The position numbers and the translations under genes were made by a program. 64,000 bases of DNA. Origin: Escherichia phage vB_EcoM_Goslar. The stretch is from the sequence record NC_048170.1. One strand, 5' to 3'. This document shows, piece by piece, positions 1,746-63,139 of the stretch. Positions within the stretch are counted from its first letter, which is position 1; each line of letters opens with the position of its first letter. A model generated the notes under the pieces. The model made no database searches, was not told the origin of the DNA, and saw nothing but the letters and a program-made list of their open reading frames with translations.

Positions 1746-1884
1746 GGTCTTGTCCTATATGTTGGTGGTTGAGGTGGCGGATATCGGATGCGTGCTGGAC
1801 GTGAACCCTATAGTTCGCGCTATCGCCATTTTCTACCTCGTTTCTATTCTCAAAAAGGAAATTTCATACGATGACGCCATAGCA

Positions 1885-1914
1885 GCTCCTCCTTCCCTGA
1901 CGGGTTGGAGGAGC
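1885..1914 (-). terminator. intergenic hairpin (8-bp stem GCTCCTCC/GGAGGAGC) downstream of lipoprotein gene
   Basis: Inverted repeat read directly; U-rich stretch follows on minus strand only after a spacer. Confidence 0.35.
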
Positions 1915-12097: not shown

Positions 12098-12161
12098 CTC
12101 AAAAAAAAAAACGAAAAAAAAAATAGGAAAACGGTGTTCATCCCTAAAAAGGATGAACACC
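12098..12161 (-). terminator. rho-independent terminator (11-bp perfect stem GGTGTTCATCC, 7-nt loop, long U-tract on minus strand)
   Basis: ggtgttcatcc-ctaaaaa-ggatgaacacc at 12133..12161, preceded on plus strand by A-runs 12098..12130 (U-runs in minus transcript). Confidence 0.75.
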
Positions 12162-12182
12162 GCGTACCGTTATATCGAACGA

Positions 12183-14454: not shown

Positions 14455-14493
14455 TTTAACAGCATAAACCCTTCCTGCGTAAGGCAGGAAGGG
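14455..14493 (-). terminator. rho-independent terminator-like hairpin (10-bp stem CCCTTCCTGC, loop gtaag, then UUUAUGCUGUU on minus strand)
   Basis: Inverted repeat at 14469..14493, just downstream of 14508..15005. Confidence 0.55.
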
Positions 14494-21645: not shown

Positions 21646-21660
21646 TTTGTTTCCTTTTAT

Positions 21661-21688
21661 CGGCATAAGCCCTCCCATGCCGGGAGGG
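21661..21688 (-). terminator. hairpin CCCTCCC-atgcc-GGGAGGG downstream of 21694..22122
   Basis: Inverted repeat 21670..21688; weak U-tract (CUUAUGCC) on minus strand. Confidence 0.45.
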
Positions 21689-25395: not shown

Positions 25396-28473
<3,078 letters not shown>

Positions 28474-28553
28474 AAAATTGTCAAAATGTACATCAGCATA
28501 ACGCCCGTGCCCGCCCGCGATGGGAGGGACACAGGCAATACGCTTTTATTTCG

Positions 28554-31122: not shown

Positions 31123-31311
31123 CGCAGCATACCCACCATGCCGATTACGGCAAACAGTATACCGACCGCACTATACGCAAGCAGCGCTTTAGCAACCCAA
31201 GATTTTATTTCCGTATACTCTTCATTATTCACCATGTCTCACCTCGTTCGGTTATTGTCTGATCTCATACCTTTACTTAAGCATATCCCCGTCATTAAGA
31301 CGGGGTGTTTA

Positions 31312-36972: not shown

Positions 36973-37005
36973 AGACGGCATAAAAGCCTCCCATTACGGG
37001 AGGCT
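36973..37005 (-). terminator. rho-independent terminator (8-bp stem AGCCTCCC/GGGAGGCT, loop attac, UUUUAUG on minus strand)
   Basis: Inverted repeat 36985..37005 just downstream of 37018..37566. Confidence 0.6.
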
Positions 37006-38262: not shown

Positions 38263-38595
38263 TTACTGAAACAAGACATTAAATTCGACGAGATACCCAT
38301 CGGATCTATCACCACGATATCTGTTGCAGAAAACACCGAATTTCATCAAGAACGCACATAACTCTTCGGCTTTGTATAGCGGAATACGATTTTCGTCGAG
38401 CAGAGGGCACTTATGGCTAACCCGCTCCGACGAATCAACGCAACACAAATAAAGAAGGAACCGAACGATAGCCCGGTTCTTAGTGAAGCTCTCGAATTCA
38501 CCTGCAGTTCTGAACTCATCGAGGAGCTTTGTCGTTTTCTTCAATCGTTCACGATCAAGCATGTTAACCTCAACACGAACATAACCCTCCTCCAA
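38263..38595 (-). CDS. hypothetical protein (110 aa)
   Basis: ORF track. Confidence 0.4.
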   Translation of the reverse strand: MEEGYVRVEVNMLDRERLKKTTKLLDEFRTAGEFESFTKNRAIVRFLLYLCCVDSSERVSHKCPLLDENRIPLYKAEELCAFLMKFGVFCNRYRGDRSDGYLVEFNVLFQ

Positions 38596-38626
38596 CCCGT
38601 AAGGGAAGGAGGAGGTGATTATGCTG

Positions 38627-38941
38627 TTATTCTGTTTTAGGTGATGAGCCGTTCTTCTTGAAGTCGGATTCGTATTTCACGTTAGAATCGAGAACCTCAC
38701 GAACGGTTTTATCCGTACAGCCACGAGCGATGTATGCATTAAGATCATCACGTAATTTACGCATCGTTGTTTTATCCGCATCAGAAATATCTGACTTGGT
38801 AAGACGGAATGCGATTGCATCACGAATTTTATTCAACGTTGCTGGGTTATTACGCTGCTCTACAAATACCGCTTTGATGAATGTACCGCTATCTTTCGAA
38901 GCGATGGCTGCATCAAGAATCTCAATATGCTTTTCAGACAT
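38627..38941 (-). CDS. hypothetical protein (104 aa)
   Basis: ORF track. Confidence 0.4.
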   Translation of the reverse strand: MSEKHIEILDAAIASKDSGTFIKAVFVEQRNNPATLNKIRDAIAFRLTKSDISDADKTTMRKLRDDLNAYIARGCTDKTVREVLDSNVKYESDFKKNGSSPKTE

Positions 38942-44092: not shown

Positions 44093-44147
44093 TCTTTTCG
44101 ATTCCTATTAAAAGTGACCGATTTCTGTGGTCGAGATTGCTAATAAA

Positions 44148-44609: not shown

Positions 44610-44656
44610 GTCCTATACGAACATGAAAAACCGTTAATTTTTACCATAGTCGTGTG

Positions 44657-44932
44657 TTAAAAATCCACACCGCGACCCGTCATCGACGAAGGAACCGCGC
44701 GATAATAGAAGTAGATGTAATGGTCACGATGGCTAAAATAGTTTTTGCAAGCATAGAACTCTCCAGATCCAATGAATGATTTAATACGTGTAACTTGAGG
44801 GTGTCGTGCGATTAACGCCCGTATAACGATTTCCATTTGGTGTGCGCTCAAGCCTGGTCGAGCGGCAACATGATAATGAAGCTCCCTAAGAAATTGTTTC
44901 CATGGGTCGGGGTGTGTCGATGATCGAGACAT
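44657..44932 (-). CDS. hypothetical protein (91 aa)
   Basis: ORF track. Confidence 0.4.
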   Translation of the reverse strand: MSRSSTHPDPWKQFLRELHYHVAARPGLSAHQMEIVIRALIARHPQVTRIKSFIGSGEFYACKNYFSHRDHYIYFYYRAVPSSMTGRGVDF

Positions 44933-44961
44933 CTTTATCTCCTTAACAGGTGCTGGTAACG

Positions 44962-44988
44962 CAGCATAAACCCTCCCCGAAGGGAGGG
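44962..44988 (-). terminator. terminator-like hairpin CCCTCCC-(UUCG loop)-GGGAGGG followed by UUUAUG on minus strand
   Basis: Inverted repeat 44971..44988 immediately downstream of 44999..45556. Confidence 0.55.
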
Positions 44989-44998
44989 CGGTTGGCGA

Positions 44999-46035: not shown

Positions 46036-46057
46036 TCATTATTCTCCGCTTTCATGA

Positions 46058-46744: not shown

Positions 46745-46785
46745 CGCACGTACCTCTTTGAATCTATTAATAAATTTTCTTTACT

Positions 46786-46809
46786 CACGTAAGTAATATA
46801 GCCGTGAAA
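46786..46809 (-). promoter_or_regulatory. conserved 20-nt intergenic motif (copy 2), candidate promoter element
   Basis: taagtaatatagccgtgaaa at 46790..46809, identical to 17787..17806; about 45 nt upstream of start of 46058..46744. Confidence 0.35.
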
Positions 46810-46888
46810 GGATTTGTGTTGGTCCGTCTCGATGCCCATCGTATTTTATGGATTGTCGAATGACGTCATTTTAAGGGACATCCCCGGC

Positions 46889-46923
46889 CTCCTCCCCAGG
46901 AAAGGTGTGGGGAGGAGTTTTTA
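46889..46923 (+). promoter_or_regulatory. terminator-like hairpin plus T5 run on plus strand, upstream of helicase gene (possible attenuator or boundary element)
   Basis: ctcctcccc-aggaaaggtgt-ggggaggag followed by ttttt; lies in divergent intergenic region. Confidence 0.4.
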
Positions 46924-46952
46924 TCATACATTCTATTAAATCGAGCGCGATT

Positions 46953-49034: not shown

Positions 49035-49133
49035 TTAAGAAGCTCTGCCTGACATCAGGCAGAGCTTCATGCTGTATTTGTTGCAAGATCGTATGACGTA
49101 TATGCGTCGTACTTATTTAATAGGACAGAATAA

Positions 49134-50585
49134 ATGAAACTCAAACAAAGCTGGAAAGACGAACTCCTTGCGCTAGTAAACAGCAAAAACAGCTTACAAC
49201 TGACGTTAGACGATGTAAAATTTGAACTGACGGCACCGGTAAGCGAAGTGCCTGGAACGGTTGTTGTTACGATCAAACCGAACGACGATAGCCGTTACTT
49301 TAACGAGCAATCTCTGACCTACGTTCGTCGAGACATCGCTAAAAACTTCACCGGGATCCCGTTACGGGTTATCGTTAAAAATGATACCGCCGTAAGGGAT
49401 ATCATCAATACGATCGCTGAACGTTACGGATTAGTATTTGACACAACCGTCGACTTCCTCGAATCCGAGCTGAATAAACAAATTACGTTCGCAGACACCG
49501 GTATTAAAGACATTACGGTTCCGGTTGCAAACACGTCTTATGTTTGGGCGGGTAATCTTCAGTTCAATATCGCTAACGATACGTTGAGCTTGATTACGAT
49601 CATCAAGCAAACCAATCTTACGAATCTGGTTTATCTGGATGGTGTTGAAGCTGACACATCGGGTTCGTTACTATTAGCAACAACCTCGGTTATCGGCGAA
49701 AACGGAAATGCCGAAACAACTGAAGGTGTCCTTGACGCCGCGTACTTCCAGAATATCCTGAACGTCATGGTTCGTTATGGTGATATTAACAGCGAACAAA
49801 TGCAACAAGCAATGCAGACAATTAACCAAAGCGAAGACGCTCGTAGAGTAGAAGTGCGGTCATACGGTGACGCCGAGTTACTGGTAACCACCAAGAAAGA
49901 TTGGGTTATCGGTAGCCTTAAGGGTGCTATGGTTGTTGGTCACGCTTCACCTAAACCGATCCAATACGTTCTTAAAACAAAAGGCGGCACCATTATATTG
50001 TCATTAGATGGTTGGACAAATGTCAATATCGATTGGGGTGATGGGAATAAGACGACGCAGGACTCAGGCGATAATGAATATCAGCACAATTATGCTGACA
50101 CTACAGAACGTACAATCGTCGCTACGGGTACCCCTACCAACACTGAAGATACAGACGTACAGCAAAGCTTCACCGGTGGTAACATCACTGAAATCGTTGA
50201 CTGGAACAACGGATTACCTAAGGCCCCATCATTCCTTGCGGCGAACAGTTTAATTAAGGTTCCCGATTATATCCCGGCATATTGGACGTCGTTAGAAAGT
50301 ATGTTTACGCGATGCAGCGCTATTAACGACGTGAGCATCACCAAATGGAACACCCGCAACGTTACTTCAATGAAGGACCTCTTCTACGGTTGCGCTACGT
50401 TCAACCAACCGATCGGTTCGTGGGATGTTTCGTCTGTTAAGAATGCAGACAATATGTTGTCTGGGTGCTTCGCGTTCAATCAGGATCTGAGTGGTTGGAC
50501 ATTCCCGGCAGGCACTTCACACATCAACTACGACGGCATGACCGCCGCATGGCAGCCTGATCACAAACCACGCTTCACCGAGTAA
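49134..50585 (+). CDS. receptor-binding-like protein: shared N-terminal module plus C-terminal DUF285-like repeats
   Basis: N-terminus MKLKQSWKDELLALVNSKNS...RRDIAKNFTGIPLRVIVKND...YGLVFDTTVDF aligns with 6868..7413 and 1..1081; C-terminus WNTRNVTSMKDLFYGCATFNQPIGSWDVSSVKNADNMLSGCFAFNQDLSGW. Confidence 0.6.
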   Translation: MKLKQSWKDELLALVNSKNSLQLTLDDVKFELTAPVSEVPGTVVVTIKPNDDSRYFNEQSLTYVRRDIAKNFTGIPLRVIVKNDTAVRDIINTIAERYGLVFDTTVDFLESELNKQITFADTGIKDITVPVANTSYVWAGNLQFNIANDTLSLITIIKQTNLTNLVYLDGVEADTSGSLLLATTSVIGENGNAETTEGVLDAAYFQNILNVMVRYGDINSEQMQQAMQTINQSEDARRVEVRSYGDAELLVTTKKDWVIGSLKGAMVVGHASPKPIQYVLKTKGGTIILSLDGWTNVNIDWGDGNKTTQDSGDNEYQHNYADTTERTIVATGTPTNTEDTDVQQSFTGGNITEIVDWNNGLPKAPSFLAANSLIKVPDYIPAYWTSLESMFTRCSAINDVSITKWNTRNVTSMKDLFYGCATFNQPIGSWDVSSVKNADNMLSGCFAFNQDLSGWTFPAGTSHINYDGMTAAWQPDHKPRFTE

Positions 50586-50606
50586 AAAAAAAAATAGTTA
50601 GCATAT

Positions 50607-50645
50607 CTTCCTCCCTACCCATAACGGGCGGGGAGGAAGGTTTAT
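50607..50645 (+). terminator. terminator between convergent genes (near-perfect 14-bp stem, loop ataac, then GUUUAU)
   Basis: cttcctccctaccc-ataac-gggcggggaggaag then gtttat; follows stop of 49134..50585. Confidence 0.6.
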
Positions 50646-50656
50646 GACGATTTAAT

Positions 50657-50995
50657 TTAGAACCAGAGTTCTTTCATGAAGTAGGCTTCCACATCGTAGA
50701 TAAGCCATTCGTCAGGGATTTCTAAAGGATCGTCTTCGGTTAAGGTCAGCATGTGTAAGGCGAACGCACGCTTAATATCGTTCAGCAGTTTCTCGTCGTC
50801 GTAACCTTCTGGTAGTTTACGGTCTACCAGCTGGGTTTGTTTATAGACATCGCGGAACGCTTCAGGGTTGTGTTTATCCATCGGGAATTGTTCAGCAGCC
50901 TGAACCATCGAAAGCGTCCAGCTTACAACATTGTAACGCTCACCGTTAATTTCACTGAACTGATCATCGATTAAACAAATTTGTTGTACGTTCAT
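50657..50995 (-). CDS. hypothetical protein (112 aa)
   Basis: ORF track. Confidence 0.4.
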   Translation of the reverse strand: MNVQQICLIDDQFSEINGERYNVVSWTLSMVQAAEQFPMDKHNPEAFRDVYKQTQLVDRKLPEGYDDEKLLNDIKRAFALHMLTLTEDDPLEIPDEWLIYDVEAYFMKELWF

Positions 50996-51912
50996 TCATT
51001 TTCTCCATTCTTATCTTGGTCGCAATCACACTCTTCGACGTCTTTCTTACTTAAACGTAAGACACTGAGTGCAGCACGCTTAAGTTCTTGCAACGCGCTT
51101 TTCAGCTGACCTTCTTCATCGAAATCAAAATACTTCTCGTTGTAGCTTAATGCTGGAATCATATTTACGAGAGGTTCGATGGCGGGCATCAGCATTTCAA
51201 TGACGACCTTAGGATCAACAAAGCGTTCGAACCCTTCAGGAAGTTTGCTCGCTACAACCTTATCGTTTTTGATGTAGAATTTGTTCTTGAACAAATCGTC
51301 AAGAATAGCATTCTCTTCATCCGTACGTTTTGCGTGAGGACGATCGATCATCTGCACAAACACATCGCTCAACGCTTCAGGCAACGTCGGATTTTCACGA
51401 AGATAAGTTCCGGCCGGAATTTCAATATCGATCTTCGTCCACTCAACAACCTGGTGGTCTCGCGTATAGATGACGTCAACTTCCCATGCCAGGCCATCAG
51501 CGCTTTCTACGGTGTAACGTGTTTTCGCCTGGCCTTCAGGAGCCATGCGCTCGATCGCGTCAAACATCTCGACTGGGATTTCGACTTCGCTTTCCGTTGC
51601 ATCACCTGGACCACGATACACCTTCGTGGTCATGATGTATTTCGGCTCTTCGTTATCGATCTGTATCGCACGTGCGCGCACCTGACCTTTCACACCACCA
51701 ACGGCTGTGTTATCAAACAACCATTGATGTTGCACCATATGTTCGATTTTTGATGCGACTTGACGAAGACGTTCAACACCGTCTTCAGCCAGTTTACCAA
51801 AGAAGACCAGCTCACGTTCCTGCTGTGTCTCACCACTTAACATCATTAGATTGGCGATTTGTTTCACGCCTCTTACTTGTGACATACATGCTCCGGTTAT
51901 AAGGGCCTGCAT
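50992..51912 (-). CDS. hypothetical protein (306 aa)
   Basis: ORF track. Confidence 0.45.
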   Translation of the reverse strand: MQALITGACMSQVRGVKQIANLMMLSGETQQERELVFFGKLAEDGVERLRQVASKIEHMVQHQWLFDNTAVGGVKGQVRARAIQIDNEEPKYIMTTKVYRGPGDATESEVEIPVEMFDAIERMAPEGQAKTRYTVESADGLAWEVDVIYTRDHQVVEWTKIDIEIPAGTYLRENPTLPEALSDVFVQMIDRPHAKRTDEENAILDDLFKNKFYIKNDKVVASKLPEGFERFVDPKVVIEMLMPAIEPLVNMIPALSYNEKYFDFDEEGQLKSALQELKRAALSVLRLSKKDVEECDCDQDKNGENE

Positions 51913-51953
51913 CTAGGCCCTTCATTGATTTTTGATTCCACCAAACGCTATCG

Positions 51954-53528
51954 TTACAATTCAAAATCTTCATCGATAACACGCTGGGTAAGCACCTTGT
52001 CGCTGAAGAACTCCACCTTGCGCTGATGGTATTTACGGTGCGCTTCGATAGATGTACATACCAGATACCAGAACGTTGGTGTCATTCCTTCGAACTTCCC
52101 TTTCAGCTGACGTAGGCGTCCCAATACCTGAATGTTACCGGTTCGTGACCCCATCGCTAACGTCATGAACGTCATCACCAAGTCAGGGAGGTCGATACCT
52201 GTACCTGCCGATTTCACCGTCGTAACGCTGATATCGTTATCCAACAAGACCATGAAATCTTCTTCAGCAGTATAAGGACCAATCTCTAACTCAGGAATAC
52301 GTTCACTGAGATAATGCGATAACGACTTACACATATCAACGGTTGCACAATACACCAGCATCTTCATGCCTTCCTGATACTGGTTCATGAAACCTTTGAT
52401 GATAACGGTATAGATAAAGTTGAAATAGGCGAGTTTGAGTTGCTTGTTCTTCATGATAGACTGTTCGAATATCGTGTGAGAATAAGAACCCCCAAAGCCT
52501 TTGTATCTGACTTTATCTGTACTGCGTAATCGATACGTTACCGCATTTACCGCAATGTATTTCTTGTATTCGCATTTCGCATAACGTGCTTCTTTCGGAT
52601 ACATCAAATACAACATCCGTTCGATGAACGGATCGTCGGACACTGCCGTTGCTGACAGATAGATGATTTCCGGAATATTCGCGTAACACTTCACTTTGAA
52701 CAAGAAATGCAATGCTTCGTGACATTCATCATGGATTAACAACCCAATGCCTGTTTTCTCCCAGAACTCGACAGGATGGAAAACATAAGGTGCGACACAG
52801 TTGTTCTTTTCATAATCGGTTATGTATCTCTGAAACATGTTCAGCGAGAATAACGCAATTTTGAAATCCAGCTCACCTTGTTCCACCAACGTCTGGAATT
52901 CCAGCATGCTGTAACGAGGAATGTCTGGATGTGGTGGGTCAGATTGAGCTGTGCCACGTATCTCGATAACATCGCCCGGTTCCATACCGAAGAAACTTAG
53001 CAGTGAGCTACGCCAACCAGGCATGTATCTCGGTGACAGGATAATACCCGTCCGTACACCGCGTCGGAAGGTGATCTCCTGCGACATGGCTGTTTTACCA
53101 GACCCCGTGCCTGCGGTGTTTAAGCTCATTCTGAAGGGGGTATCCTTACCCCCGTCCATGTACTCCAACCATTCTTGTTGATCTTCACGCCACGGAAACT
53201 TCCATTTCTTTACGAACTCCACTTCCTTACCTGGCACTGGATCGTGATAAACGATTTCCAACCACTCTTTTCGGATTCCTCGAGAGAAGATAAAATCCAA
53301 AAACGATTTCAACTGTTCGCGGAGTAAGTATACCTCGCTATAATCGCTTCTCGCTGCGGCATACGTGTTTATGGTATCGGTAACCATTCTCCGTGTACGA
53401 GGGTCACGCCGTTTCCTCAGATGCAAACAACGGTCTCGAAGGTAATGGCCGATAAGATGGGCAAATCGAAGTCCGTATCCGCTCAGCCTCATGCCATGCG
53501 AGAAGACGTCGATACGAGCTAACTTCAT
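51954..53528 (-). CDS. superfamily II DExH-box helicase
   Basis: Motif I GTGSGKT, motif II LIHDECHE, motif III LSATAV, motif V AGTGIDLPD, motif VI QVLGRLRQ. Confidence 0.65.
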   Translation of the reverse strand: MKLARIDVFSHGMRLSGYGLRFAHLIGHYLRDRCLHLRKRRDPRTRRMVTDTINTYAAARSDYSEVYLLREQLKSFLDFIFSRGIRKEWLEIVYHDPVPGKEVEFVKKWKFPWREDQQEWLEYMDGGKDTPFRMSLNTAGTGSGKTAMSQEITFRRGVRTGIILSPRYMPGWRSSLLSFFGMEPGDVIEIRGTAQSDPPHPDIPRYSMLEFQTLVEQGELDFKIALFSLNMFQRYITDYEKNNCVAPYVFHPVEFWEKTGIGLLIHDECHEALHFLFKVKCYANIPEIIYLSATAVSDDPFIERMLYLMYPKEARYAKCEYKKYIAVNAVTYRLRSTDKVRYKGFGGSYSHTIFEQSIMKNKQLKLAYFNFIYTVIIKGFMNQYQEGMKMLVYCATVDMCKSLSHYLSERIPELEIGPYTAEEDFMVLLDNDISVTTVKSAGTGIDLPDLVMTFMTLAMGSRTGNIQVLGRLRQLKGKFEGMTPTFWYLVCTSIEAHRKYHQRKVEFFSDKVLTQRVIDEDFEL

Positions 53529-55531
53529 AACGTGATTACATCCTCCGGTTTAGGTTCTTTACGCGGTAAAAGCATGTAGTCGATCGGATGATCCGGCTTC
53601 ATGGTTGGGATATAACTGTTCGGGTTTTGGAACGCATCCAGTTGCTCTTGGTGAGCGAACTTCATACTCAAGGAGCGCATGTTCATGTTCTTCTTGAAGG
53701 TACTGAAGTATCGTGTTGTTCCCTGTTTCGGCATGCGATAATCTTTCGTGTGTGGTGAACGAATCATGCTGGCGTAGAGAATAACATCGAGATGCGAAAG
53801 GTTCATTCGCAGACGCTGGGCACACAGACGATGCCAATAGTACAGCACGTTTGCAACTTCTTCCGGTGTCGCTTCGTCTTCCGAAAGGAATCCGGCACTG
53901 AAAGAACCTTTCCCGAATTTGAATTCACGTTCGATTTCTTTTGCGTATTCCATCATGTTTTTGTGGATTAACGGCATCTGGAATAACGTACGTGAATTGT
54001 CCCAATGTTTCAAGTCGAAAATCACAATCCCGTCAGACGTCACTTCCCAGCTATGGCGTTTAAGATAACGGATAAACGCTTTACTCGGGACAACGGGACG
54101 TCCACAGAAATCGAAATTGACTTTGAGCTTACGGTAGCTTTCATCTTTCCTGTCGTAAATCTCCATATCACAAAGCGTCATGTTAAACAGGCGTTGCGGT
54201 ATCAGCGAACTGATTTCTTCCGCTTCCGCTACATCGTACAACATGTTCGCAAGACCTAACTTCATCTTAATCAGCACGTGTTTACCTTTCAGCTCACGTG
54301 CGAGTTTGATGTCGTTCATATTCTGGCTGTAGCGAAGGATATGTTGATATTCCGGTGGGATTGGTGCTGTGGATACCGTTGACGAACCATCATGGTGTTT
54401 GGTAGAAAGAATGTTCTGCGTTACCTGTTGCGAACAGGTACGCGCTGCGCCATCGCCGACATTATCGGTTAGTGCGAAGTTATGACTTAATTCACCGTAA
54501 CACGTCGTACATACCCCAGCAGGATCGGGATGATGACAATAGTTAACGGAGCGCATACGCACTGTGGTGCCGATCAATTCTTTCATGTGTGGTTGTATCG
54601 CTACCAACGAACCGTCATCGCGAATAATGAATCGACCGTGGAAGCCACGCAGGTCGGTCTCATCACGGATTGGCATCGGGATGGTCTCTTTACTACCACA
54701 ATCTCCAGGATGGAGTCGTTGTACAACCGCTGTCGCTATCTGAAGTTCACGACCGAAATATTCAGACTTCTTGATCTGCTCTTTGTTGAACAGCAACGAC
54801 TTCGCCGCAGAACGACTTTCTTTCAAGCTGTCGGGAAGAGAGATCAAACCTGCCGCGTACGACCGCATTACTGGATCACGGAATATCTCGGAGTTAATAT
54901 CGGTCAAGAATCCACGCATCCCAATACACTGCAGCACCTGCCCAATCGAAACGTGTTCGGTTCGTACCGCACGCGCAATAGGGTTTGCGTGTAACGTTTT
55001 ATCGGTGCTCAGTACCTTGGTCAGTTTCTTGTATGCGCTTTCGATACCTTCACGGGTGGGTTCCGCTTCGGCGATGATTTTCTTAACTTCAGGATGTACG
55101 GTAATCTGATAAAAATCATCCGCGCAAATAGTCGTTACGTATTCCTCCAGCGCATACGTAAAGAAGTTATATACATTGTTAAACATATCGAACAATGCTT
55201 TCCAGAGAACCTCACGATTCTCTTGTGGATAAGCATACATGCATTGACGATACGCGGCGCTTTGCAACGCAACCGACGAACCAGCAGTAAACTTGCGTTT
55301 ATCGACCAGGTTCTCTTTTGTCAATGGTGTCTCAGGATACATGCGATGCACAGACCAGTGCATGTAACTAAAGAAAATGCGTCGCGCACGCAATTCATGA
55401 ACGCCATCGTCCATCTCGATATATACACGGTCATTAGGCTGTGCCCACTCGAATACTTCATCAACCGGCCAGTGCATAAGCTCGCGTGCCCTCACACGAC
55501 GTTTCGTGGTGGTCGTCTGTGTTATAGTCAT
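53525..55531 (-). CDS. multisubunit RNA polymerase beta-prime-like protein (C-terminal half homolog)
   Basis: VRMRSVNYCHHPDPAGVCTTCYGEL...AARTCSQQVTQNILSTKHHDG parallels E. coli beta-prime [22 protein letters not shown]...[22 protein letters not shown]; upstream IGQVLQCIGMRGFL parallels LNVLQYFISTHGAR; no NADFDGD motif, consistent with a split subunit. Confidence 0.55.
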   Translation of the reverse strand: MTITQTTTTKRRVRARELMHWPVDEVFEWAQPNDRVYIEMDDGVHELRARRIFFSYMHWSVHRMYPETPLTKENLVDKRKFTAGSSVALQSAAYRQCMYAYPQENREVLWKALFDMFNNVYNFFTYALEEYVTTICADDFYQITVHPEVKKIIAEAEPTREGIESAYKKLTKVLSTDKTLHANPIARAVRTEHVSIGQVLQCIGMRGFLTDINSEIFRDPVMRSYAAGLISLPDSLKESRSAAKSLLFNKEQIKKSEYFGRELQIATAVVQRLHPGDCGSKETIPMPIRDETDLRGFHGRFIIRDDGSLVAIQPHMKELIGTTVRMRSVNYCHHPDPAGVCTTCYGELSHNFALTDNVGDGAARTCSQQVTQNILSTKHHDGSSTVSTAPIPPEYQHILRYSQNMNDIKLARELKGKHVLIKMKLGLANMLYDVAEAEEISSLIPQRLFNMTLCDMEIYDRKDESYRKLKVNFDFCGRPVVPSKAFIRYLKRHSWEVTSDGIVIFDLKHWDNSRTLFQMPLIHKNMMEYAKEIEREFKFGKGSFSAGFLSEDEATPEEVANVLYYWHRLCAQRLRMNLSHLDVILYASMIRSPHTKDYRMPKQGTTRYFSTFKKNMNMRSLSMKFAHQEQLDAFQNPNSYIPTMKPDHPIDYMLLPRKEPKPEDVITL

Positions 55532-55676
55532 TATTGCTTTCCGATTTAAATGGTTTTATCATACGGTTTACCAAATCCGTTGGACTTTACTATCGTTGTG
55601 ATAGCATTGGGAATCCCTTCCCTTAGGTTATGTAGGTGTTAATATATCTCCACTGCTGACCTTTATGTCGGCAGCA

Positions 55677-56162
55677 TTATCCAGCTTTCTGTTGTAAAGC
55701 GTATGGATCCATAGCGTCTGACATATCCGCAAAAACGGTGAGAATAAACCCCTTTATCTGTCTCACCTCGGTTACACGAAGCCCTTTATCATTGCGATAT
55801 ACGTTTTCTTCACCGACTAACTTTGGTCGAATAACATAAACTCCATCAACAAGCGGGAATGTCGGATACGGATAAATACCAATACGAATGATGTTTGGGC
55901 GATCGCCTAGAAGGTCACGTCCAAACTTATCGACTCGACCATAAATCGCCCCATCCGCACCTTCCACCTCAATGAGATCGTTTCGAATATCCTGAAATAG
56001 CTGCTCTAACGTGTCGGCGGGATACGCATATGCGACGCCTAACGCTGGATCCTCAATGGTTTTGACACTGAATCCGTTAAGCCAAACAATCCGTTCATCC
56101 GCCCATGTTTCTTCATATACCGTTAATCCATCGCCGTATATGTTGGCGTGTGCTATCTCCAT
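55677..56162 (-). CDS. hypothetical protein (161 aa)
   Basis: ORF track. Confidence 0.45.
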   Translation of the reverse strand: MEIAHANIYGDGLTVYEETWADERIVWLNGFSVKTIEDPALGVAYAYPADTLEQLFQDIRNDLIEVEGADGAIYGRVDKFGRDLLGDRPNIIRIGIYPYPTFPLVDGVYVIRPKLVGEENVYRNDKGLRVTEVRQIKGFILTVFADMSDAMDPYALQQKAG

Positions 56163-56276
56163 AATCTCATTTCCTCTTATACGTTAGGATAGATGACATG
56201 TTTGATATACGTTGCCTTTGCATATATTGCTTTATTTCCGTCAGAAATAACGGAAAATAAAAACAACGACATAGTT

Positions 56277-56306
56277 CCCTCCCACCTCCACATGGGAGAG
56301 GGAGGG
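56277..56306 (-). terminator. hairpin CCCTCCC-acctccacatgggaga-GGGAGGG, U-rich 3' flank on minus strand
   Basis: Inverted repeat; loop shares cacatggg with hairpin at 57135..57163. Confidence 0.45.
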
Positions 56307-56319
56307 CTATTCGTGTTTA

Positions 56320-56682
56320 TTACTCTATGCTGTCTTCTTCAGCACAATCCTCTTCTGAACCATCGAACGTTTTCTGCACTGCAGTGGTATCCCAGTTGGC
56401 AGCGTAATCAGCCATCGCTTCGCGCAGTGCTTCCTCACCAGCATCACCGGCCAGGTCAAGTACAACCAAACCTTGCGCGACGTTTTGAGCGACAGTATCA
56501 ATAACGGTCGCATCTTCTTCAAAACTACGTACCGGTTCAATGGTGCCTACATCAACAGCATAGTTCGTGGTCGCTGTAAGCACGGCGACTTGTAGCGCAT
56601 CACTATCTTCATCGTGCAATGCTGCTTCAATACCGATTGGACGGGCCAGTTCTTGTAGTGTTAATTTGCGAATTAAGTTCAT
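56320..56682 (-). CDS. highly acidic protein (120 aa)
   Basis: Asp/Glu-rich throughout, ends ...DGSEEDCAEEDSIE. Confidence 0.4.
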   Translation of the reverse strand: MNLIRKLTLQELARPIGIEAALHDEDSDALQVAVLTATTNYAVDVGTIEPVRSFEEDATVIDTVAQNVAQGLVVLDLAGDAGEEALREAMADYAANWDTTAVQKTFDGSEEDCAEEDSIE

Positions 56683-56704
56683 TATGTTTTTCCTCAGGTG
56701 AATG

Positions 56705-57055
56705 TTAGCAATCGTTTAAAACTTTTTCGATACGATGGTTGACGAATTCATTGAACGACTCTTCGGCTTGTTCGATAATTTCATCAACATCGATATCTAA
56801 TTGTTGGGGTTGGATGACATGCTCTTTCATGGTTTCTAGCCAGTATTCGGCTTTAACCATAACGTTAGCGACTTGTTCGACCTGACTGCGTATGTCGACG
56901 ATCTGGCAATCAGGATTGTTAATATCGATGATGTGTCCGTGGTGTTTGATAAACCCTAACTTATTCGACGCCCTTACCGCATCGCGGGCAAGCTCTTGCA
57001 AGATTAAATTATTTACATAGTTCACTGCTATGGAACGACTTTCTTTATCACTCAT
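56705..57055 (-). CDS. hypothetical protein (116 aa)
   Basis: ORF track. Confidence 0.4.
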   Translation of the reverse strand: MSDKESRSIAVNYVNNLILQELARDAVRASNKLGFIKHHGHIIDINNPDCQIVDIRSQVEQVANVMVKAEYWLETMKEHVIQPQQLDIDVDEIIEQAEESFNEFVNHRIEKVLNDC

Positions 57056-57134
57056 ACCAGGGATCCTCTTTTAAGTGTTCACATTCTAGTGTTAAGCAGT
57101 TAAAATAAACCGTCCCTTTAATCAGCATAAACAT

Positions 57135-57163
57135 CCTCCTCCCACCACATGGGCAGGAGGAGG
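57135..57163 (-). terminator. hairpin CCTCCTCC-caccacatgggca-GGAGGAGG downstream of 57175..57585
   Basis: Inverted repeat; related to hairpin at 56277..56306. Confidence 0.45.
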
Positions 57164-57174
57164 CGTAATATGCA

Positions 57175-57585
57175 TCAGAAAGGAGGACGATCTTTAAATT
57201 CTAACAACGTGTCTTCGAAGCAAGCGATGAGTTCAGACTGTAATTCGGTACGGCCTTGTTCACCGAAGAGTTCCAGCAACATTAACCCCCGAGCGGTCTT
57301 CGTAGCAACCTCTTCGCAGATGCGGAGATCGTGAACTTCATCATCGTTGACATCTTTACGCAACTGTGCCGCAATGGGCTTAAGATTGCCGTTTTCATCG
57401 TGTTCGTCACGAAATGCATCATAAGCCGCATCGATGTTCGCGATCCGTGTCAATCCTTCAGAATCCCGCCAATCTCGATATAATCCAAGAAGACGATTAT
57501 GATTCTTCGTTTTGACGTTCGGTGCTGGAAGGTTGCGCAACAGATGTGGCGTAATCATTGCTATCACGCTATCCGAATGATTCAT
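57175..57585 (-). CDS. hypothetical protein (136 aa)
   Basis: ORF track. Confidence 0.4.
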   Translation of the reverse strand: MNHSDSVIAMITPHLLRNLPAPNVKTKNHNRLLGLYRDWRDSEGLTRIANIDAAYDAFRDEHDENGNLKPIAAQLRKDVNDDEVHDLRICEEVATKTARGLMLLELFGEQGRTELQSELIACFEDTLLEFKDRPPF

Positions 57586-57596
57586 CGTATACCTCG

Positions 57597-59765
57597 TTAG
57601 CTTTCGCAGTCATCTGCGTCGATGATTTGTCCGCCAGCAACGTTCAGCTGATGATACAGAATCCTCAACGCACGGTTGCCACCAATGGGATACTTCTCGA
57701 AGTTGGTTGCAATAGGAATCGCTGACGGCTTATCGGTCGCATAGATACTTTCAGTGATGCTATCCACCTGTTTTGGATTGTTCGCATAATCCATAAAGAC
57801 GCTTGCGAACCATCCGCCAGCAAAGGCGGTAACTTCGCGATGTTCAGATTCGCCACAGTAACGAGTTGGTTGCTCTTTACCCGGAGAACTGTATTTATCG
57901 CTATTACTGAGTTTCGACGGTAATCCATGCGCTTGCAATTTAGGAATACCCACAGCCGACCAATCGTTCGCCGTCTTCTCCAACATCATGATGTACGTGT
58001 CACCGATCGCAATATCGTTCTTGGTTGTCCGCCACTGCCCAGAACGCCCACGGTATCGTACAGGACCTTTCTTCAACGGGAACTCACGAATCAGATTCTC
58101 CATACGTTCTGAACCTGCTGCGATACTGTCCGTCGGGATATAAACTTCCGTACCGTGGCGTTGTACATACCGTAAATGATCCCATTTATCCTCATCCGTG
58201 ATACAGTATTTTTCAACAACCTGTTCCACGAATTCAGGACTGACGATATAGTAGTAACGCATTAGTGTGTTCCAAGCGGTCTCCAGATCGCCTGCATCCA
58301 TCACTGGTTTCAGTTCACGCATGATCTGATCGCCAACACCGTTGATGTAAGGTGCATTAACACGACTTAAACTCATCCTTTTGATTACCGTGCTATCGTC
58401 AAACATAAAGTCTGCAACGTTACCCCATTGGTCAACCGGCATCTCATCATCTTCCATGATGTCGGTTACGACGAATTTATCACCCGCCATACCAGTGAAT
58501 TTAAACCCGATACCTGGAACAACGTCGTACGTGTACGTGATGGTCACACGCCAATCATCGAGATTCTCTTTGCGGTAATCGCGGGTCGGTAACACATGAC
58601 GTAGCTGTCCATTAGGATTGCGGATATCAATACCATGTTCAGCATCAGCCAGGTTCAACCACCACATCACCGTTTGATGATGACGTATCGGCGTACCAAC
58701 GCGTTCACGTTCATACTTACGAACAGCATCCTGAATTCGGGTGTAAAGCAAACCGATTGCGTTCTCGTATTTCAGGAATTGACGATACGGAGGACGCATC
58801 TTCTCTTCCATCATAATCGCACGCTCGCGGGCTTGACGTCCAGAACGACGATGCCGGTCGCTGACAACATCGATATCCGTTACACGCGCATTCGGTTCAG
58901 CGTAAGTGAGGTCATCGTAAACATAATCCACACGCTGAAGATTACACGTCATCATGTCAACAACGCTGAGGATAGGATCTATTTCGCGTGTTGCTGCAAG
59001 TAACCCATCTTTACGAATACGCTCACCGTTCTCGGGTATTGCTTGATATACCTCATCATCGCCGTAGAGATTGATTGGGTATCGCGATTTACCTGATGTG
59101 ATTGTTCGCTTCTCAATGCCGGTACTGGTGAAATGTTTCAATACACCACGACGGGCAACACCACCATCCTCGATACACTGATAGAAGCTACCGAAACACA
59201 CTTTACAATCGCGACCGTAACCCCACTCGCGTGTTTCTTGATTGATCGCTGGGCTTTCCATCAAACGAGAATATCGCGGTACGATCTGGCCTCGACGGAG
59301 GGAATGGAACAAGTTGGTTGGTCGAAAACGGAAACCGTACTGCTGATGCATGATGTGATGCTCAGGCACTTCAAGCAAGCGTAGTTCGTGGCGGTTACCA
59401 TCCTCTTGGTTTTCATACAGCACGTAATGCATCGTGTTTGTTTTGATGCTGTTTGCTGTATGCCCCGGTTGGAAACGTGGGATGATATCTATGATGCGAG
59501 ATTCGACTGGAAACTCTACTGACCAAGTGTTCTGTCCGTACTGGTATTCAATCCCCGTCGTTAGTCGGGACGGTTTCGCATCTTTGATAACCAACGCTTG
59601 GCTAAGATGTCCACCAAACATCGCAGCGCGCTGTGCTGAGTTATAATGCAATAGCCCGTTAAGTCCAGTCCCTACGCCAGTATACTCCTGTTTAATGGGA
59701 ATGATTTTACCTTCAGCGATTGCCTGCTTCACAGATTCATAAAGAGGTTTTTCTTTATAATGCAT
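57597..59765 (-). CDS. multisubunit RNA polymerase beta-like protein (C-terminal half homolog)
   Basis: FKFTGMAGDKFVVTDIMEDDEMPVDQWGNVADFMFDDSTVIKRMSLSRV parallels E. coli beta [47 protein letters not shown]; also YIMMLEK versus YMYMLKL and a C-terminal segment parallel to GQRFGEMEVWALEAYGA; start placed at ATG 59765 preceded by AGGAAG (ORF track 57597..59930). Confidence 0.6.
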   Translation of the reverse strand: MHYKEKPLYESVKQAIAEGKIIPIKQEYTGVGTGLNGLLHYNSAQRAAMFGGHLSQALVIKDAKPSRLTTGIEYQYGQNTWSVEFPVESRIIDIIPRFQPGHTANSIKTNTMHYVLYENQEDGNRHELRLLEVPEHHIMHQQYGFRFRPTNLFHSLRRGQIVPRYSRLMESPAINQETREWGYGRDCKVCFGSFYQCIEDGGVARRGVLKHFTSTGIEKRTITSGKSRYPINLYGDDEVYQAIPENGERIRKDGLLAATREIDPILSVVDMMTCNLQRVDYVYDDLTYAEPNARVTDIDVVSDRHRRSGRQARERAIMMEEKMRPPYRQFLKYENAIGLLYTRIQDAVRKYERERVGTPIRHHQTVMWWLNLADAEHGIDIRNPNGQLRHVLPTRDYRKENLDDWRVTITYTYDVVPGIGFKFTGMAGDKFVVTDIMEDDEMPVDQWGNVADFMFDDSTVIKRMSLSRVNAPYINGVGDQIMRELKPVMDAGDLETAWNTLMRYYYIVSPEFVEQVVEKYCITDEDKWDHLRYVQRHGTEVYIPTDSIAAGSERMENLIREFPLKKGPVRYRGRSGQWRTTKNDIAIGDTYIMMLEKTANDWSAVGIPKLQAHGLPSKLSNSDKYSSPGKEQPTRYCGESEHREVTAFAGGWFASVFMDYANNPKQVDSITESIYATDKPSAIPIATNFEKYPIGGNRALRILYHQLNVAGGQIIDADDCES

Positions 59766-59796
59766 AGGACTTCCTATTATCGAATTGAGGTACGTC

Positions 59797-60150
59797 ATGT
59801 CTAACACGCCCCTGAACGACTTTCTTAAGACAAACCCCGATGACCTCATCCACGATCTTGATTTCAGGAACGTTGTTGAGATGCATCTGGAATATTTCAA
59901 AAATGCCGGACTGGTCTCTACGATAGACATACCACCCGAACGCGCCTACGAATTCGATGGTAACTTTTATGGATTGTGTCGTGTTCTGCTCGGCGAGGGT
60001 AGCGAACCAATGCACTGGATCACCCTGAGACTCAATGGTTATCGCGACCCTACGGAATACACCGCCGATGTTCTAACCATGAAGATTGTCGATACAAGCG
60101 CAATCAACACATTAAAACAACAGTACCGCACAATCCACTACAGCGCTTAA
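59797..60150 (+). CDS. hypothetical protein (117 aa), lone plus-strand gene
   Basis: ORF track 59785..60150; ATG 59797 preceded by GAGG; followed by hairpin. Confidence 0.4.
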   Translation: MSNTPLNDFLKTNPDDLIHDLDFRNVVEMHLEYFKNAGLVSTIDIPPERAYEFDGNFYGLCRVLLGEGSEPMHWITLRLNGYRDPTEYTADVLTMKIVDTSAINTLKQQYRTIHYSA

Positions 60151-60155
60151 GATAA

Positions 60156-60190
60156 CCCTCCCGCAACGTAAGGCGTAGGGAGGGCATTTA
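60156..60190 (+). terminator. hairpin CCCTCCC-15 nt loop-GGGAGGG then cattt, between convergent genes
   Basis: Inverted repeat read directly. Confidence 0.45.
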
Positions 60191-60215
60191 TGCCGTCGTT
60201 CGATGACTTAATACA

Positions 60216-61496
60216 TCAGAAACGATTTACAGTACGTCCTGTCCACGCGCTCAGGATGTTGTTACGTTCCATCTCAGCACGACGACGTAAACCGTTTGGC
60301 GACTGCGGTGCTGGCGGCATCCCCCATCCGGCAGGTTGCATGCCCATGCCCGGCCAAGCAGCATTATTGAACATCGTACCGTTACGTTCCGCAACACGGT
60401 TCATCAACGCATCAAACGTGCTATTACCTGCCGGTTGGTTACCACCACTTTCCCACTGATTAGGTTGGACAGGTGCGGTTTTACCTAACAGGTTATCGAT
60501 CACACTGCCTGTTGCAGCAGGACGCGGTTGCATACCTTCATGTGCGGCTGCCGATGGATTTGGCTTAACCGTCGGCTGTGGACGACTGTTCAGCGTTACA
60601 CCCATGTTGTATTTCGCTGGCGGAATCTGACCACGATGCTGATTAATCGGTTCAAAATCCTCGACCCAGGTAACATCGCAATAACCGTTCTCTTTACCGT
60701 CGTACTTATCACCAAACAGTTTGATGAGATTGTTCAGCGGTTCCATCAGCTTAGCGAAGCTGTGGATAAGACAGTCGAAATACGGAGCATGGGGATCGCT
60801 TGACCCAGCGTTGTACGTTTCGCTTACTTCACCCGCGTGCGGGATAACATACTCAACCAGGTTTCTCAGCATGTTAAGATCTTTCTTGGAAATCTCAACA
60901 CCACACCAATACGTTTTCTTATCTTTCGTGCTGATGTGTTCTTCTTCCATGAACGGGAAAGTAACGACCGCAACGCGGGTCATCTTCTTACCCATGTAGG
61001 TTGCACCAGTACGACGAAGATAAATTTTGGACAGCGTATACGGCGTATCACGTTTCAGCCAAACGGTGACCAGTTTGCCCAGGGTCGTTAGTGTTTTATC
61101 GCTGGCGTCCGCAAGGATGTTGAAGAACTCTTTTTGCTTCGGCCCGAAACGTTTTGCTTCTTTAGGATTGATTGCGGTTTCAACCATCCAAATCAGCATG
61201 GAGCATAGCGTGGCATTAAAACGAACAACCATCGCACGACGCAGGAACTGAAGGACTTCCGATTCGCCGTTCATCACGTCTTCACTTAGCGGATGGAACA
61301 ACACGCGTTCAGCTAACTGATTTCCGGTACGAACTTCAGAAACCGGCATCAACAACGGCATGCTTTCCACGGTAGCGGCAACTGCAACAACTTTACCATC
61401 CCCATCCGTAAAACGATATTCTAATTCGTGGGCGTCATTCTCAAAATAGTTAACGCTCTGTAGTGCTTTGCGATAAGCTTCGATAAGCTTCGACAT
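60216..61496 (-). CDS. hypothetical protein (426 aa) with Pro/Gly/Gln-rich C-terminal region
   Basis: ORF track. Confidence 0.5.
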   Translation of the reverse strand: MSKLIEAYRKALQSVNYFENDAHELEYRFTDGDGKVVAVAATVESMPLLMPVSEVRTGNQLAERVLFHPLSEDVMNGESEVLQFLRRAMVVRFNATLCSMLIWMVETAINPKEAKRFGPKQKEFFNILADASDKTLTTLGKLVTVWLKRDTPYTLSKIYLRRTGATYMGKKMTRVAVVTFPFMEEEHISTKDKKTYWCGVEISKKDLNMLRNLVEYVIPHAGEVSETYNAGSSDPHAPYFDCLIHSFAKLMEPLNNLIKLFGDKYDGKENGYCDVTWVEDFEPINQHRGQIPPAKYNMGVTLNSRPQPTVKPNPSAAAHEGMQPRPAATGSVIDNLLGKTAPVQPNQWESGGNQPAGNSTFDALMNRVAERNGTMFNNAAWPGMGMQPAGWGMPPAPQSPNGLRRRAEMERNNILSAWTGRTVNRF

Positions 61497-61551
61497 ATTG
61501 TATTTCCTTTTCTTTACGTCAACGGTCCCCCTACAACAGGGGACCTATGGA

Positions 61552-63138
61552 TTAGAAGTTGCCTTTGGTAGTTACCGCATCCACCAGGTTAAACAAATCA
61601 ACACTCAGCTTATACACCTCCTGCTGGCTACGGTTGAGCAGCGGGCTGTATGCGGATGGGTTGATGTTCGGCATGGTGTACGGAATAGGTGCAGAGCCGT
61701 CAACGCTGATCTTGAACTGGCTGTCCAGGAACAGGTTAATCGCGCCGCTCACCATAACCGCATTCGGGTTGTTACCCAACATGGAGGGTAGGATATTGGT
61801 AATCATGTCAGAACGCATTTGTTCAGCAGCACGGTTACAATCGTATCCTTTAATGAACGGTACAGCGTCGGTAACCGCAACCGCCCACTGACCAGGCATG
61901 ATACCGAGTTCTGGGTGACCATGGTTGTCAGCAATGAAACGGAACGACTCCAACATGCGATACGTCATCGCAGCAGGCATCATCGCAGCAAGCGATGAGC
62001 AATACAGCGTTGGATAATCGATCACGTCCCAGCTCTGGCTGTCGGTCGGCATCCAACCAAACTCGGTGGTTGCTGATGTACCACGACGAGCTTCCACATA
62101 CGGGAATAACGTTAAGACGTCACGGATATGTTCACCGAACATCCGTTTCATGTCAGCCCAACTCAGGCTGCCGCTGAAAGCGAATCCTTCATCACGCATA
62201 ATCGCACCGAATACCGGATGTGCAACCAGCGGTTCTTCACGAACAGCTTGAGCGGCTTCTACGTAAATATCCTCGTTCTCTGCGCTACCTGGATGAGACC
62301 CGCTTTCGTACGTCTGACGAATAGCCCCAACATTATCGAAGGCTTTTCTCAGATAGATGGTTGGGATGTTCGTATCGGCACTAGCTGGTTTGATTTTCTC
62401 TGTTGCGAAACACATTGCTGCTTCCACACCACGGAAAACCGGTTCCGGTTGCGGTGGGTAGGATGTACGATGAACCACGTCAGCGTAGGCGGGATCGAAC
62501 TGCTGCATTACGTTCTGCATGGCTGGGTCCATGAACTGGTTATCAAAACCACCATTGCCCACCCAACGTGCTGTCGATGCATAAGTCAGCGTATCCTGAA
62601 CACGAGTACTGAACTGAACATCGCGATTAACAGGGTCGTACGCACCGGTCAAAAGGTTCGTTGCGTCCATCGGGGTCGCGCGAACGATTTGCTTACCGAA
62701 CATGTCCGTTGTGGTTGTTTCGGTTACCTGGATTACGTTCGTGAAGAAGAACACCAGTTCATTCGGCAGATCGATAGCACGCGTTGTAAACGCATCGAGG
62801 CTTACAGAATGGTCGGTGTATCCAGAAATGTAATGGACACGCTTGGTTCCTGGTGCAAGGGCCAAGGATTCTTCTACAGCCATCATGAAATGGAAACGAC
62901 GTGTGCCCCAACCATTCGCAATCTCCGAAACCCCCTCAGGTTCTGCAGACTGCTGCAACAAACCGGTTGCAAGCTTATTGATTGCTGATGGTGTTGTTGC
63001 CGTACCGAACCGCGTCGTGTTAATAAAGTCTTCGATGCTACGCATGCTATCTGCGTGGAATCGTAGTGGACGACGTTGTACGTTGTTGTACGGTGCGGTT
63101 TCAACCATCAGTATTTCACGAACATTCATCGGGATCAT
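61552..63138 (-). CDS. hypothetical protein (528 aa)
   Basis: ORF track; long uninterrupted ORF. Confidence 0.5.
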   Translation of the reverse strand: MIPMNVREILMVETAPYNNVQRRPLRFHADSMRSIEDFINTTRFGTATTPSAINKLATGLLQQSAEPEGVSEIANGWGTRRFHFMMAVEESLALAPGTKRVHYISGYTDHSVSLDAFTTRAIDLPNELVFFFTNVIQVTETTTTDMFGKQIVRATPMDATNLLTGAYDPVNRDVQFSTRVQDTLTYASTARWVGNGGFDNQFMDPAMQNVMQQFDPAYADVVHRTSYPPQPEPVFRGVEAAMCFATEKIKPASADTNIPTIYLRKAFDNVGAIRQTYESGSHPGSAENEDIYVEAAQAVREEPLVAHPVFGAIMRDEGFAFSGSLSWADMKRMFGEHIRDVLTLFPYVEARRGTSATTEFGWMPTDSQSWDVIDYPTLYCSSLAAMMPAAMTYRMLESFRFIADNHGHPELGIMPGQWAVAVTDAVPFIKGYDCNRAAEQMRSDMITNILPSMLGNNPNAVMVSGAINLFLDSQFKISVDGSAPIPYTMPNINPSAYSPLLNRSQQEVYKLSVDLFNLVDAVTTKGNF

Positions 63139-63139
63139 T

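Follow-up and report, generated by a model that had tools for sequence, protein, structure and literature searches.

A 64,000-nucleotide stretch of the genome of Escherichia phage vB_EcoM_Goslar (NC_048170.1), hereafter the window, carries a family of GC-rich intergenic hairpins with CCCTCCC/GGGAGGG arms, and we conclude, with a probability that we put at roughly 0.85, that these elements are phiKZ-type transcription terminators used by the phage's own multisubunit RNA polymerases (RNAPs). The family itself is confirmed as non-random. Support for a role in termination comes from homology, position and sequence evolution, from which we infer the formation of transcript 3' ends at these sites in this phage, the polymerase that would respond to them, and a pausing role for a conserved box that follows the stem. 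The terminator class has already been described for phages phiKZ and 201phi2-1, and what is new here is a member in a distant jumbo phage; the breadth of conservation of the box and its overlap with the core of a late promoter are the points added to that description.

At least 14 related hairpins were found in the window, about 12 of which have arms of the CCCTCCC/CCTCCTCC type. A preliminary description of this DNA, prepared from the sequence without database searches, had proposed at least nine such hairpins, two of them at 56277-56306 and 57135-57163, and had listed sites near 21.67, 44.97, 46.89, 50.61, 56.28, 57.14 and 60.16 kb. Each of these was recovered where it had been placed, and further members were located at 1885, 14469, 28503, 36985 and 38586, together with related hairpins at 31287 and 49039 whose arm sequences are of another kind. 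Named by their start coordinates and with imperfect stems included, the 14 elements are 1885, 14469, 21670, 28503, 31287, 36985, 38586, 44971, 46889, 49039, 50607, 56277, 57135 and 60156, and their folding energies range from -13.3 to -24.3 kcal/mol. The heptamer CCCTCCC occurs 10 times in the window (2.6 expected; none of 100 shuffles reached 10) and CCTCCTCC occurs 6 times (0.56 expected; again none of 100 shuffles as high). A scan of the window for inverted repeats returned 22 perfect GC-rich stems of at least 7 bp compared with 5.4 in dinucleotide shuffles, and 8 of these hairpins, compared with 0.075 in shuffles, have one arm that is at least 85% pyrimidine. The sense-strand hairpins start 3-31 nt past the stop codon of the upstream open reading frame (ORF), far above chance frequency and in keeping with the earlier impression that most sit just after stop codons. 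Hairpins of other types also follow stop codons at 7577, 12132, 37619 and 61524. No model of Rfam 15 reached its gathering score anywhere in the window, and a tRNA search of the window found nothing.

On the coding strand, most of these hairpins precede, by 1-5 nt (usually 2), a conserved box, TTATG-Y-Y-G(T), and not a run of U residues; examples are TTTATGCTG, CTTATGCCG and TTTATGCCG, and the hairpin-box junctions include GGGAGGG-tt-TATGCTG at 44971 and 14469 and -ct-TATGCCG at 21670. TATG lies within 9 nt of perfect-stem hairpins in 9 cases, with 0.3 expected. The box is on the sense side in at least 10 elements and on the antisense side in 3 more, the best box at both 60156 and 38586 being antisense. 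The hexamer TTATGC is not enriched across the whole window (29 occurrences, 35 expected), so that placement right after the hairpins is the special part. A search of the full-text literature for the box sequence returned only a primer in an unrelated genome announcement.

Hairpin and box together correspond to the terminators mapped in phiKZ by ONT-cappable-seq (n=61), for which the motif 5'-BCCYCCCCHWWDGGGRRGGBYTTATKYYGT-3' describes a stem-loop and, after it, a TTAT region (Putzeys et al. 2024, microLife, PMC10914365), and to the similar 'motif A' (n=59) of 201phi2-1, a phage in which eight terminators, some of this motif class among them, were validated in vivo (PMC11512511). Compared with the full 30-nt phiKZ consensus, the 36985 element has 2 mismatches (0 matches expected), and the 3' half of the consensus, GGBYTTATKYYG, has 5 matches in the window, all on the sense strand, against 0.32 expected. 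A hairpin scan of 100 kb of phiKZ gave approximately 30 sites in which GCCCTCCC-loop-GGGAGGGC precedes (T)TTATG-Y-Y-GT, and the loops TTCG and GTAAT/ATTAC are common to phiKZ sites and the window. An nhmmer profile of the 14-sequence alignment produced no matches at E<0.01; because the motif is too short for that method and the alignment is not structurally in register, we turned to a covariance model for which four window elements and one ortholog were the only training sequences. Its top matches in phiKZ scored 43 bits, the level of the training sequences, with about 19 matches at E<=0.01 in 100 kb. Scans of unrelated viral contigs totalling 373 kb and of 40 kb from the jumbo phage AR9, whose promoter type is different, yielded no match even at E<=1. 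The same 40 kb of AR9 held no CCCTCCC hairpins and no TATGYYG box, a negative result that carries little weight given the 27% GC content of the AR9 genome.

In IMG/VR the exact pattern CCCTCCC-N3-8-GGGAGGG-YTTATG occurs in 65 stretches on 28 contigs, 18 of which are 170-317 kb long and hold most of the stretches; by a rough estimate chance would yield less than one. At the positions after TTATG, which the search left unconstrained, 67 matches outside the window phage carry Y (58/67), Y (63/67), G (43/67) and T (35/67), and 51 of the 67 have TATG on the opposite side as well; in control contigs TATG followed GC-rich hairpins in 0/68 and 4/75 cases. In Klebsiella phage Eowyn and Erwinia phage Ea35-70 the arms are reversed (GGGAGGGC-loop-GCCCTCCC) and the box TTTATGCCGT is kept after the stem; judged from these sequences, the conserved feature is the box and not the polarity of the arms. 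Retention of the box across Pseudomonas, Klebsiella, Erwinia and uncultivated jumbo phages suggests a signal specific to their polymerases. The combination of hairpin and TTATGYYG offers a simple signature for the ends of transcription units in uncultivated phiKZ-like jumbo phages, and for flagging such phages in metagenomes, and the elements may serve synthetic biology as compact, possibly polymerase-specific terminators.

The likeness to the phiKZ and 201phi2-1 terminators extends over the GC-rich stem-loop with CCYCCC and GGGRGG arms and short UUCG or GUAAU/AUUAC loops, the box TTAT-K-Y-Y-G-T placed 1-3 nt past the stem, and the location of sites after stop codons and between convergent genes, often in bidirectional form; as in phiKZ, the host phage has two split multisubunit RNA polymerases. 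Unlike those of phiKZ, the window stems are more varied (CCTCCTCC, CCCTTCC, and loops or inner stems of up to 14 nt), the stem-to-box spacing runs from 1 to 5 nt, and bidirectional copies are fewer, since almost all genes run one way. With bacterial intrinsic (Rho-independent) terminators the elements share a GC-rich hairpin that forms in the nascent RNA and has a U-rich stretch after it, and the 201phi2-1 versions also act with a host polymerase in vivo. They differ in having just UUUAU as a U tract, after which comes a conserved G-Y-Y-G, and in the conservation of arm and tail sequences throughout the family.

The genome context agrees with this assignment. Nearly all long ORFs of the window lie on the - strand, and two genes encode RNAP beta-like proteins, at 57597-59930 (phrog_3295, E 2e-180) and 53525-55531 (phrog_3015, E 5e-170). 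Among sequenced phages, the proteins most like them, with only ~30-34% identity, belong to phiKZ-like jumbo phages that infect Klebsiella, Xanthomonas, Erwinia and Pseudomonas, and by these sequence matches the window phage is a phiKZ-like jumbo phage with split beta/beta' multisubunit RNAP genes. The suggestion in the preliminary description that the hairpins form a dedicated class of phage-RNAP terminators is thus supported both by the phiKZ motif match and by the split beta/beta' RNAP genes. Sigma-70-like promoter matches in window positions 44001-64000 fall below shuffled sequence (25 compared with 33.4), an absence of enrichment that fits transcription independent of the host polymerase.

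The box overlaps another known signal, the core of the late promoters read by the phiKZ non-virion RNA polymerase (nvRNAP), which is 5'-TATG-3', transcription beginning at its G (Yakunina et al. 2015, PMC4666361; IUCrJ 2026, PMC12809450), and this overlap poses a testable question on how these enzymes stop. The module and such promoters have the four bases TATG in common, which in the module stand at a fixed short distance after most hairpins, and differ in that late promoters need no hairpin and show no conservation past the G. It is conceivable, if unlikely, that each element is a composite that ends the upstream transcript and then uses the box TATG to restart transcription of the downstream gene, a reading that draws on the definition of phiKZ late promoters by 5'-TATG-3' with a start at G and on the presence of sense-side TATG, 20-225 nt upstream of the next gene, in at least 10 window elements. 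The distribution of the module speaks against it. In the 100-kb phiKZ sample the module is present at 9/9 convergent junctions and at 0/9 divergent (promoter-only) ones, and TATG is equally frequent where there is no gene to promote: phiKZ convergent junctions usually have the box on both sides, with TATG on 15/18 sides, and the window's single convergent junction (50607) has one hairpin with TATG on each side. Furthermore, P119L, the model phiKZ late promoter, lacks a hairpin, the box runs on to YYGT, which is not conserved in late promoters, and the base after TAT in phiKZ is G in just 30/47 sites. The contrast between convergent and divergent junctions indicates that the module marks gene ends and not gene starts, as a gene-end signal to which the box G belongs. 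A subset of elements could nevertheless also re-initiate at the box G.

Improbable, and more so than the composite, is a function in RNA 3'-end protection or processing, an option named in the preliminary description as well, with transcription reading through and the hairpins blocking 3' exonucleases or marking endonuclease cuts. The location and stability of the hairpins fit this, and 3'-end mapping in relatives does not exclude it. The stems, however, are only 7-13 bp, less than RNase III-type sites of the kind known from T7 require, and the box downstream of the stem is conserved even though it would be lost from a trimmed RNA. In addition, the eight terminators of 201phi2-1 lowered expression of a downstream reporter in a terminator trap in uninfected cells (PMC11512511).

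A search of a phage collection for DNA nearly identical to the region gave no match. The closest public sequence, IMGVR_UViG_3300011560_000001 (IMG/VR, 237.5 kb), is ~92-94% identical to the window phage, and 81 of 84 differences in a polymerase gene fall at third codon positions, so that the two are related at the strain level. When the 14 elements were aligned with their orthologs in this relative, giving 145 base pairs, substitutions were found at 6/290 paired positions (2.1%) and at 18/89 unpaired positions within the elements (20%), with 8.8% in the 30 nt upstream and 5% in the first 10 nt downstream. No difference was seen in 140 of the 145 pairs. A double compensatory change (U-A to C-G) has occurred in 1 pair, at 14469, 3 have one-sided changes to G·U that pair only in the sense RNA, and 1, an inner one, no longer pairs. 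TTATG stays the same in every element but 31287, and the first Y of the box toggles between T and C in three cases, as the phiKZ consensus permits. This pattern of substitution shows strong purifying selection on the stems, with changes compatible with the sense RNA.

These data also bear on the possibility, which we consider very improbable, that the elements work at the DNA level, as cruciforms, protein-binding palindromes or recombination sites, independently of transcription. Many copies remain palindromic past the stem, where CATAA on one flank is matched by TTATG on the opposite flank, and a loop inversion at 49039 and an inner swap at 38586 between close relatives are events at the DNA level. 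However, all three one-sided stem changes yield G·U in the sense RNA and would be mismatches in DNA or antisense RNA, the box prefers the coding strand in a one-directional gene block, and the position is right after stop codons. Translational control, in which the GGAGG-like 3' arm would be a Shine-Dalgarno sequence hidden by an anti-Shine-Dalgarno 5' arm or would drive a mini-ORF starting at the box ATG, is scarcely credible: GGGAGGG-UUU-AUG does resemble a ribosome binding site with a start codon, and some mini-ORFs (e.g. from 57129 and 28500) end at or near the next gene start, but the real downstream start is 20 to 225 nt away and not at ribosome-binding distance, the same element stands between convergent genes, Eowyn and Ea35-70 keep the box though their 3' arm is C-rich, and the ATG of the phiKZ box is often ATT or ATA. 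Two further candidates were discarded on general grounds, no test aimed at them having been made: T7-type RNase III sites, for which much longer stems are needed, and N4-type hairpin promoters, which have a 3-nt loop and lie upstream of early genes.

If the elements are terminators of the phiKZ type, they would be expected to act as follows. A very stable hairpin, with one arm of pyrimidines only and one of purines only, would form in the nascent sense RNA a few nucleotides past the stop codon, and 1-5 nt (mostly 2) later the polymerase would transcribe UUAUG-Y-Y-G(U), the UUUAU stretch leaving a weak RNA-DNA hybrid. The steps from U to G and from Y to G would fit the pause signal of multisubunit polymerases (a pyrimidine at the 3' end with G as the next base), so that the enzyme may stall 5-8 nt past the stem while the hairpin releases the transcript; the pauses would fall at 5 and 8 nt after the stem, 8 nt being the classical release distance. 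Since many elements carry the box on both sides, they could stop transcription arriving from either direction. The consensus elemental pause signal of multisubunit RNAPs is G-10 Y-1 G+1 (PMC6062546, PMC6336406). At the usual 2-nt spacing, GGGAGGG-UU-UAU with G as the next base puts G at -10/-11, U at -3, U at -1 and G at +1, and UUUAUGCU followed by G puts Y-1/G+1 eight nt past the stem, a register that is read from the sequence.

Several observations weigh against termination of this kind or against its proposed mechanism. Most elements fail a generic rule for intrinsic terminators (at least 5 T in 8), which in the 44-64 kb region only 57135 and 44971 of the family pass, and sites that pass it are not enriched overall (15 found, 17.9 expected). 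No gene ends upstream of the 46889 element, which is located between divergent genes, and the sense side of 60156 is without a box. The pause register suits the window and phiKZ. Phages with a C-rich 3' arm lack G-10, and because it is not conserved when the arms are reversed, the pause model is only partly supported. Finally, the long-read 3' ends of phiKZ do not suffice to tell termination apart from 3' processing or from a stalled exonuclease.

A more specific version of terminator function can be entertained, although we hold it doubtful: the TTATG-Y-Y-G box might be a polymerase-specific stop signal that is read during elongation by the beta-lobe pocket of the nvRNAP. The pocket, which reads non-template TATG at late promoters, would grip the same bases 5 nt past the hairpin and hold the enzyme paused in the U(-1)/G(+1) register while the hairpin releases the RNA, in a manner resembling sigma-dependent pausing at -10-like sequences. 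If true, this would explain why the box is kept from phiKZ to enterobacterial and uncultivated jumbo phages, although their polymerases are only ~30% identical, and with either arm polarity.

The preliminary description had taken the repeated arms and a loop shared by two hairpins as marks of a class. The two hairpins, which on the + strand read ccctcccacctcCACATGGGagagggaggg (56277-56306) and cctcctcccacCACATGGGcaggaggagg (57135-57163), do share the loop core CACATGGG (+ strand, 56289-56296 and 57146-57153), and as sense (-) RNA both fold into 12-bp stems with a CAUGU loop (-20.4 and -21.6 kcal/mol, respectively). By a rough estimate, chance alone would give an identical pair of 5-nt loops in a set of 14 in about 1 case out of 10, and one of the two, at 57135, is already altered from C to T in the closest relative, the sole change in that element. 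The ORFs upstream of the two hairpins are not paralogs, so the shared loop is not due to tandem gene duplication. It is real but only weakly significant, and probably incidental. What is both conserved and diagnostic is the TTATGYYG box, on which the preliminary description is silent.

The first of these modules (56266..56306, - strand) consists of the hairpin CCCUCCCUCUCC-CAUGU-GGAGGUGGGAGGG followed by AAC and the box TATGTCGT; it begins 13 nt past the stop of ORF 56320-56682 and is identical in the relative. The surrounding intergenic region, 56163-56319 (157 nt), has 1 difference from the relative, compared with ~6% in coding sequence and ~9% in the 30 nt upstream of other terminators, and also holds a second hairpin, 56232-56256 (UUUCCGU...ACGGAAA); this region may be a conserved promoter, 5' untranslated region or small RNA. 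The second module (57122..57163, - strand) has its hairpin 11 nt past the stop of ORF 57175-57585, followed by ATGTT and the box TATGCTGA, with a weaker ATATGCAT on the + side. Hairpin 60156-60184 (60156..60196, listed without a strand) precedes the RNAP beta-like gene and follows the stop of ORF 60216-61496 at a distance of 31 nt. Its canonical box, CATT-TATGCCGT at 60189-60196, is on the + (antisense) strand, where the covariance model also matches (23.9 bits), and its sense side has merely TTATCTTAAG.

The putative bidirectional terminator at 50598..50650 (hairpin 50607-50639, -23.5 kcal/mol) separates the convergent genes 49134-50585 (+) and 50657-50995 (-), with A-TATGCTAA as the box on the - side and GTT-TATGACGA on the + side; hairpin and box are unchanged in the relative. 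The putative + strand terminator at 49039..49075 follows the helicase-like gene 46905-49034 (+) and has a 13-bp hairpin (-24.3 kcal/mol) with arms that are not of the CCCTCCC type, ATGCTGT directly after the stem and a covariance-model match of 20.6 bits. In the relative its loop is inverted at 49052-49055 (ACAT to ATGT) and its last pair becomes G·U, giving TTATGCTG. Element 38586 (38576..38627, no strand assigned; hairpin 38586-38615, CCUCCUCC arms, -21.9 kcal/mol) has a sense box GT-TATGTTCG and a perfect antisense box TGAT-TATGCTGT. In the relative the outer stem is kept and the inner segment, 38594-38607, is exchanged for a near reverse-complement resembling the 1885 element. The changes at 49039 and 38586 resemble the outcome of template switching at a palindrome or of a gene conversion event involving two terminators.

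The remaining box-type modules are all on the - strand. At 44961..44988, CCCUCCC-UUCG-GGGAGGG, located 10 nt past the stop of ORF 44999-45556, is followed by TT and TATGCTGC; at 36975..37005, AGCCUCCC-GUAAU-GGGAGGCU, with a loop type also common in phiKZ, is followed by TT and TATGCCGT. The module at 31278..31305, CCCCGUC-UUAAU-GACGGGG followed by A and TATGCTTA, is 6 nt past the stop of ORF 31312-31686, and in the relative one of its pairs becomes U·G and its box becomes TACG. A long imperfect hairpin with CCCUCCC (-23.1 kcal/mol), followed by GT and TATGCTGA, makes up the module at 28493..28536. At 21660..21688, CCCUCCC-GGCAU-GGGAGGG, then CT and TATGCCGA, stands 5 nt past the stop of ORF 21694-22122, and at 14459..14493, CCCUUCCUGC-CUUAC-GCAGGAAGGG, then TT and TATGCTGT, stands 14 nt past the stop of ORF 14508-15005; in the relative the latter shows one U·G change beside its compensatory pair. 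The module at 1874..1914, GCUCCUCC...GGAGGAGC (-21 kcal/mol) followed by TGC and TATGGCGT, is 8 nt past the stop of ORF 1923-2426.

The atypical member at 46889..46927 (+) has the hairpin CUCCUCCCCA...UGGGGAGGAG followed on the + strand by TTTTTATCAT, and lies in a divergent intergenic region; TATG is absent from both of its sides, and on neither strand does a gene end upstream of it. This hairpin is just upstream of the + strand helicase-like gene, has a UUUUUAUCAU tail that is U-rich on the + strand, and belongs to 57 nt with 100% identity in the relative; it could be an attenuator in a 5' untranslated region or an insulator against antisense read-in. Among hairpins outside the family, the GC-rich one after a stop codon at 61524..61545 (-), GGUCCCC...GGGGACC, has no TTATG box on its sense side and is probably a terminator of a different or weaker type. 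A classical-looking intrinsic terminator at 12098..12162 (-) comprises a 12-bp hairpin and two T runs of ~10 nt each, with one compensatory pair change in the hairpin (12132-12162) in the relative; U-tract terminators thus coexist with the box type in this phage.

The box ATG opens short ORFs on the - strand at 57129..57049, 28500..28444 and 44968..44936 (26, 18 and 10 codons), which end at or a few nucleotides from the next start codon (e.g. ...TATGAGTGA, ...ACATGA); they are probably incidental, though they could provide translational coupling.

A 17-mer, CACGGCTATATTACTTA, occurs in two copies on the - strand (17787-17803 and 46790-46806; 0.16 expected). It contains TATATTAC, reported as the core of the phiKZ early (virion polymerase) promoter, and resembles the 201phi2-1 early motif TTTRARR-BTATATTAC-DWHDGTG (PMC7058600, Table 2). 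The 46790-46806 copy is ~45 nt upstream of gene 46058-46744, and the 17787-17803 copy has a hairpin (17757-17787) directly after it; by their sequence, the two copies are likely early promoters. A 1324-aa tail-fibre protein is encoded at 2887-6861 (-), and many tail-fibre PHROGs match it very strongly and repeatedly (phrog_6722, E = 0); this region is patchy in the relative, at just ~80-89% identity, which marks it as a fast-evolving host-range module.

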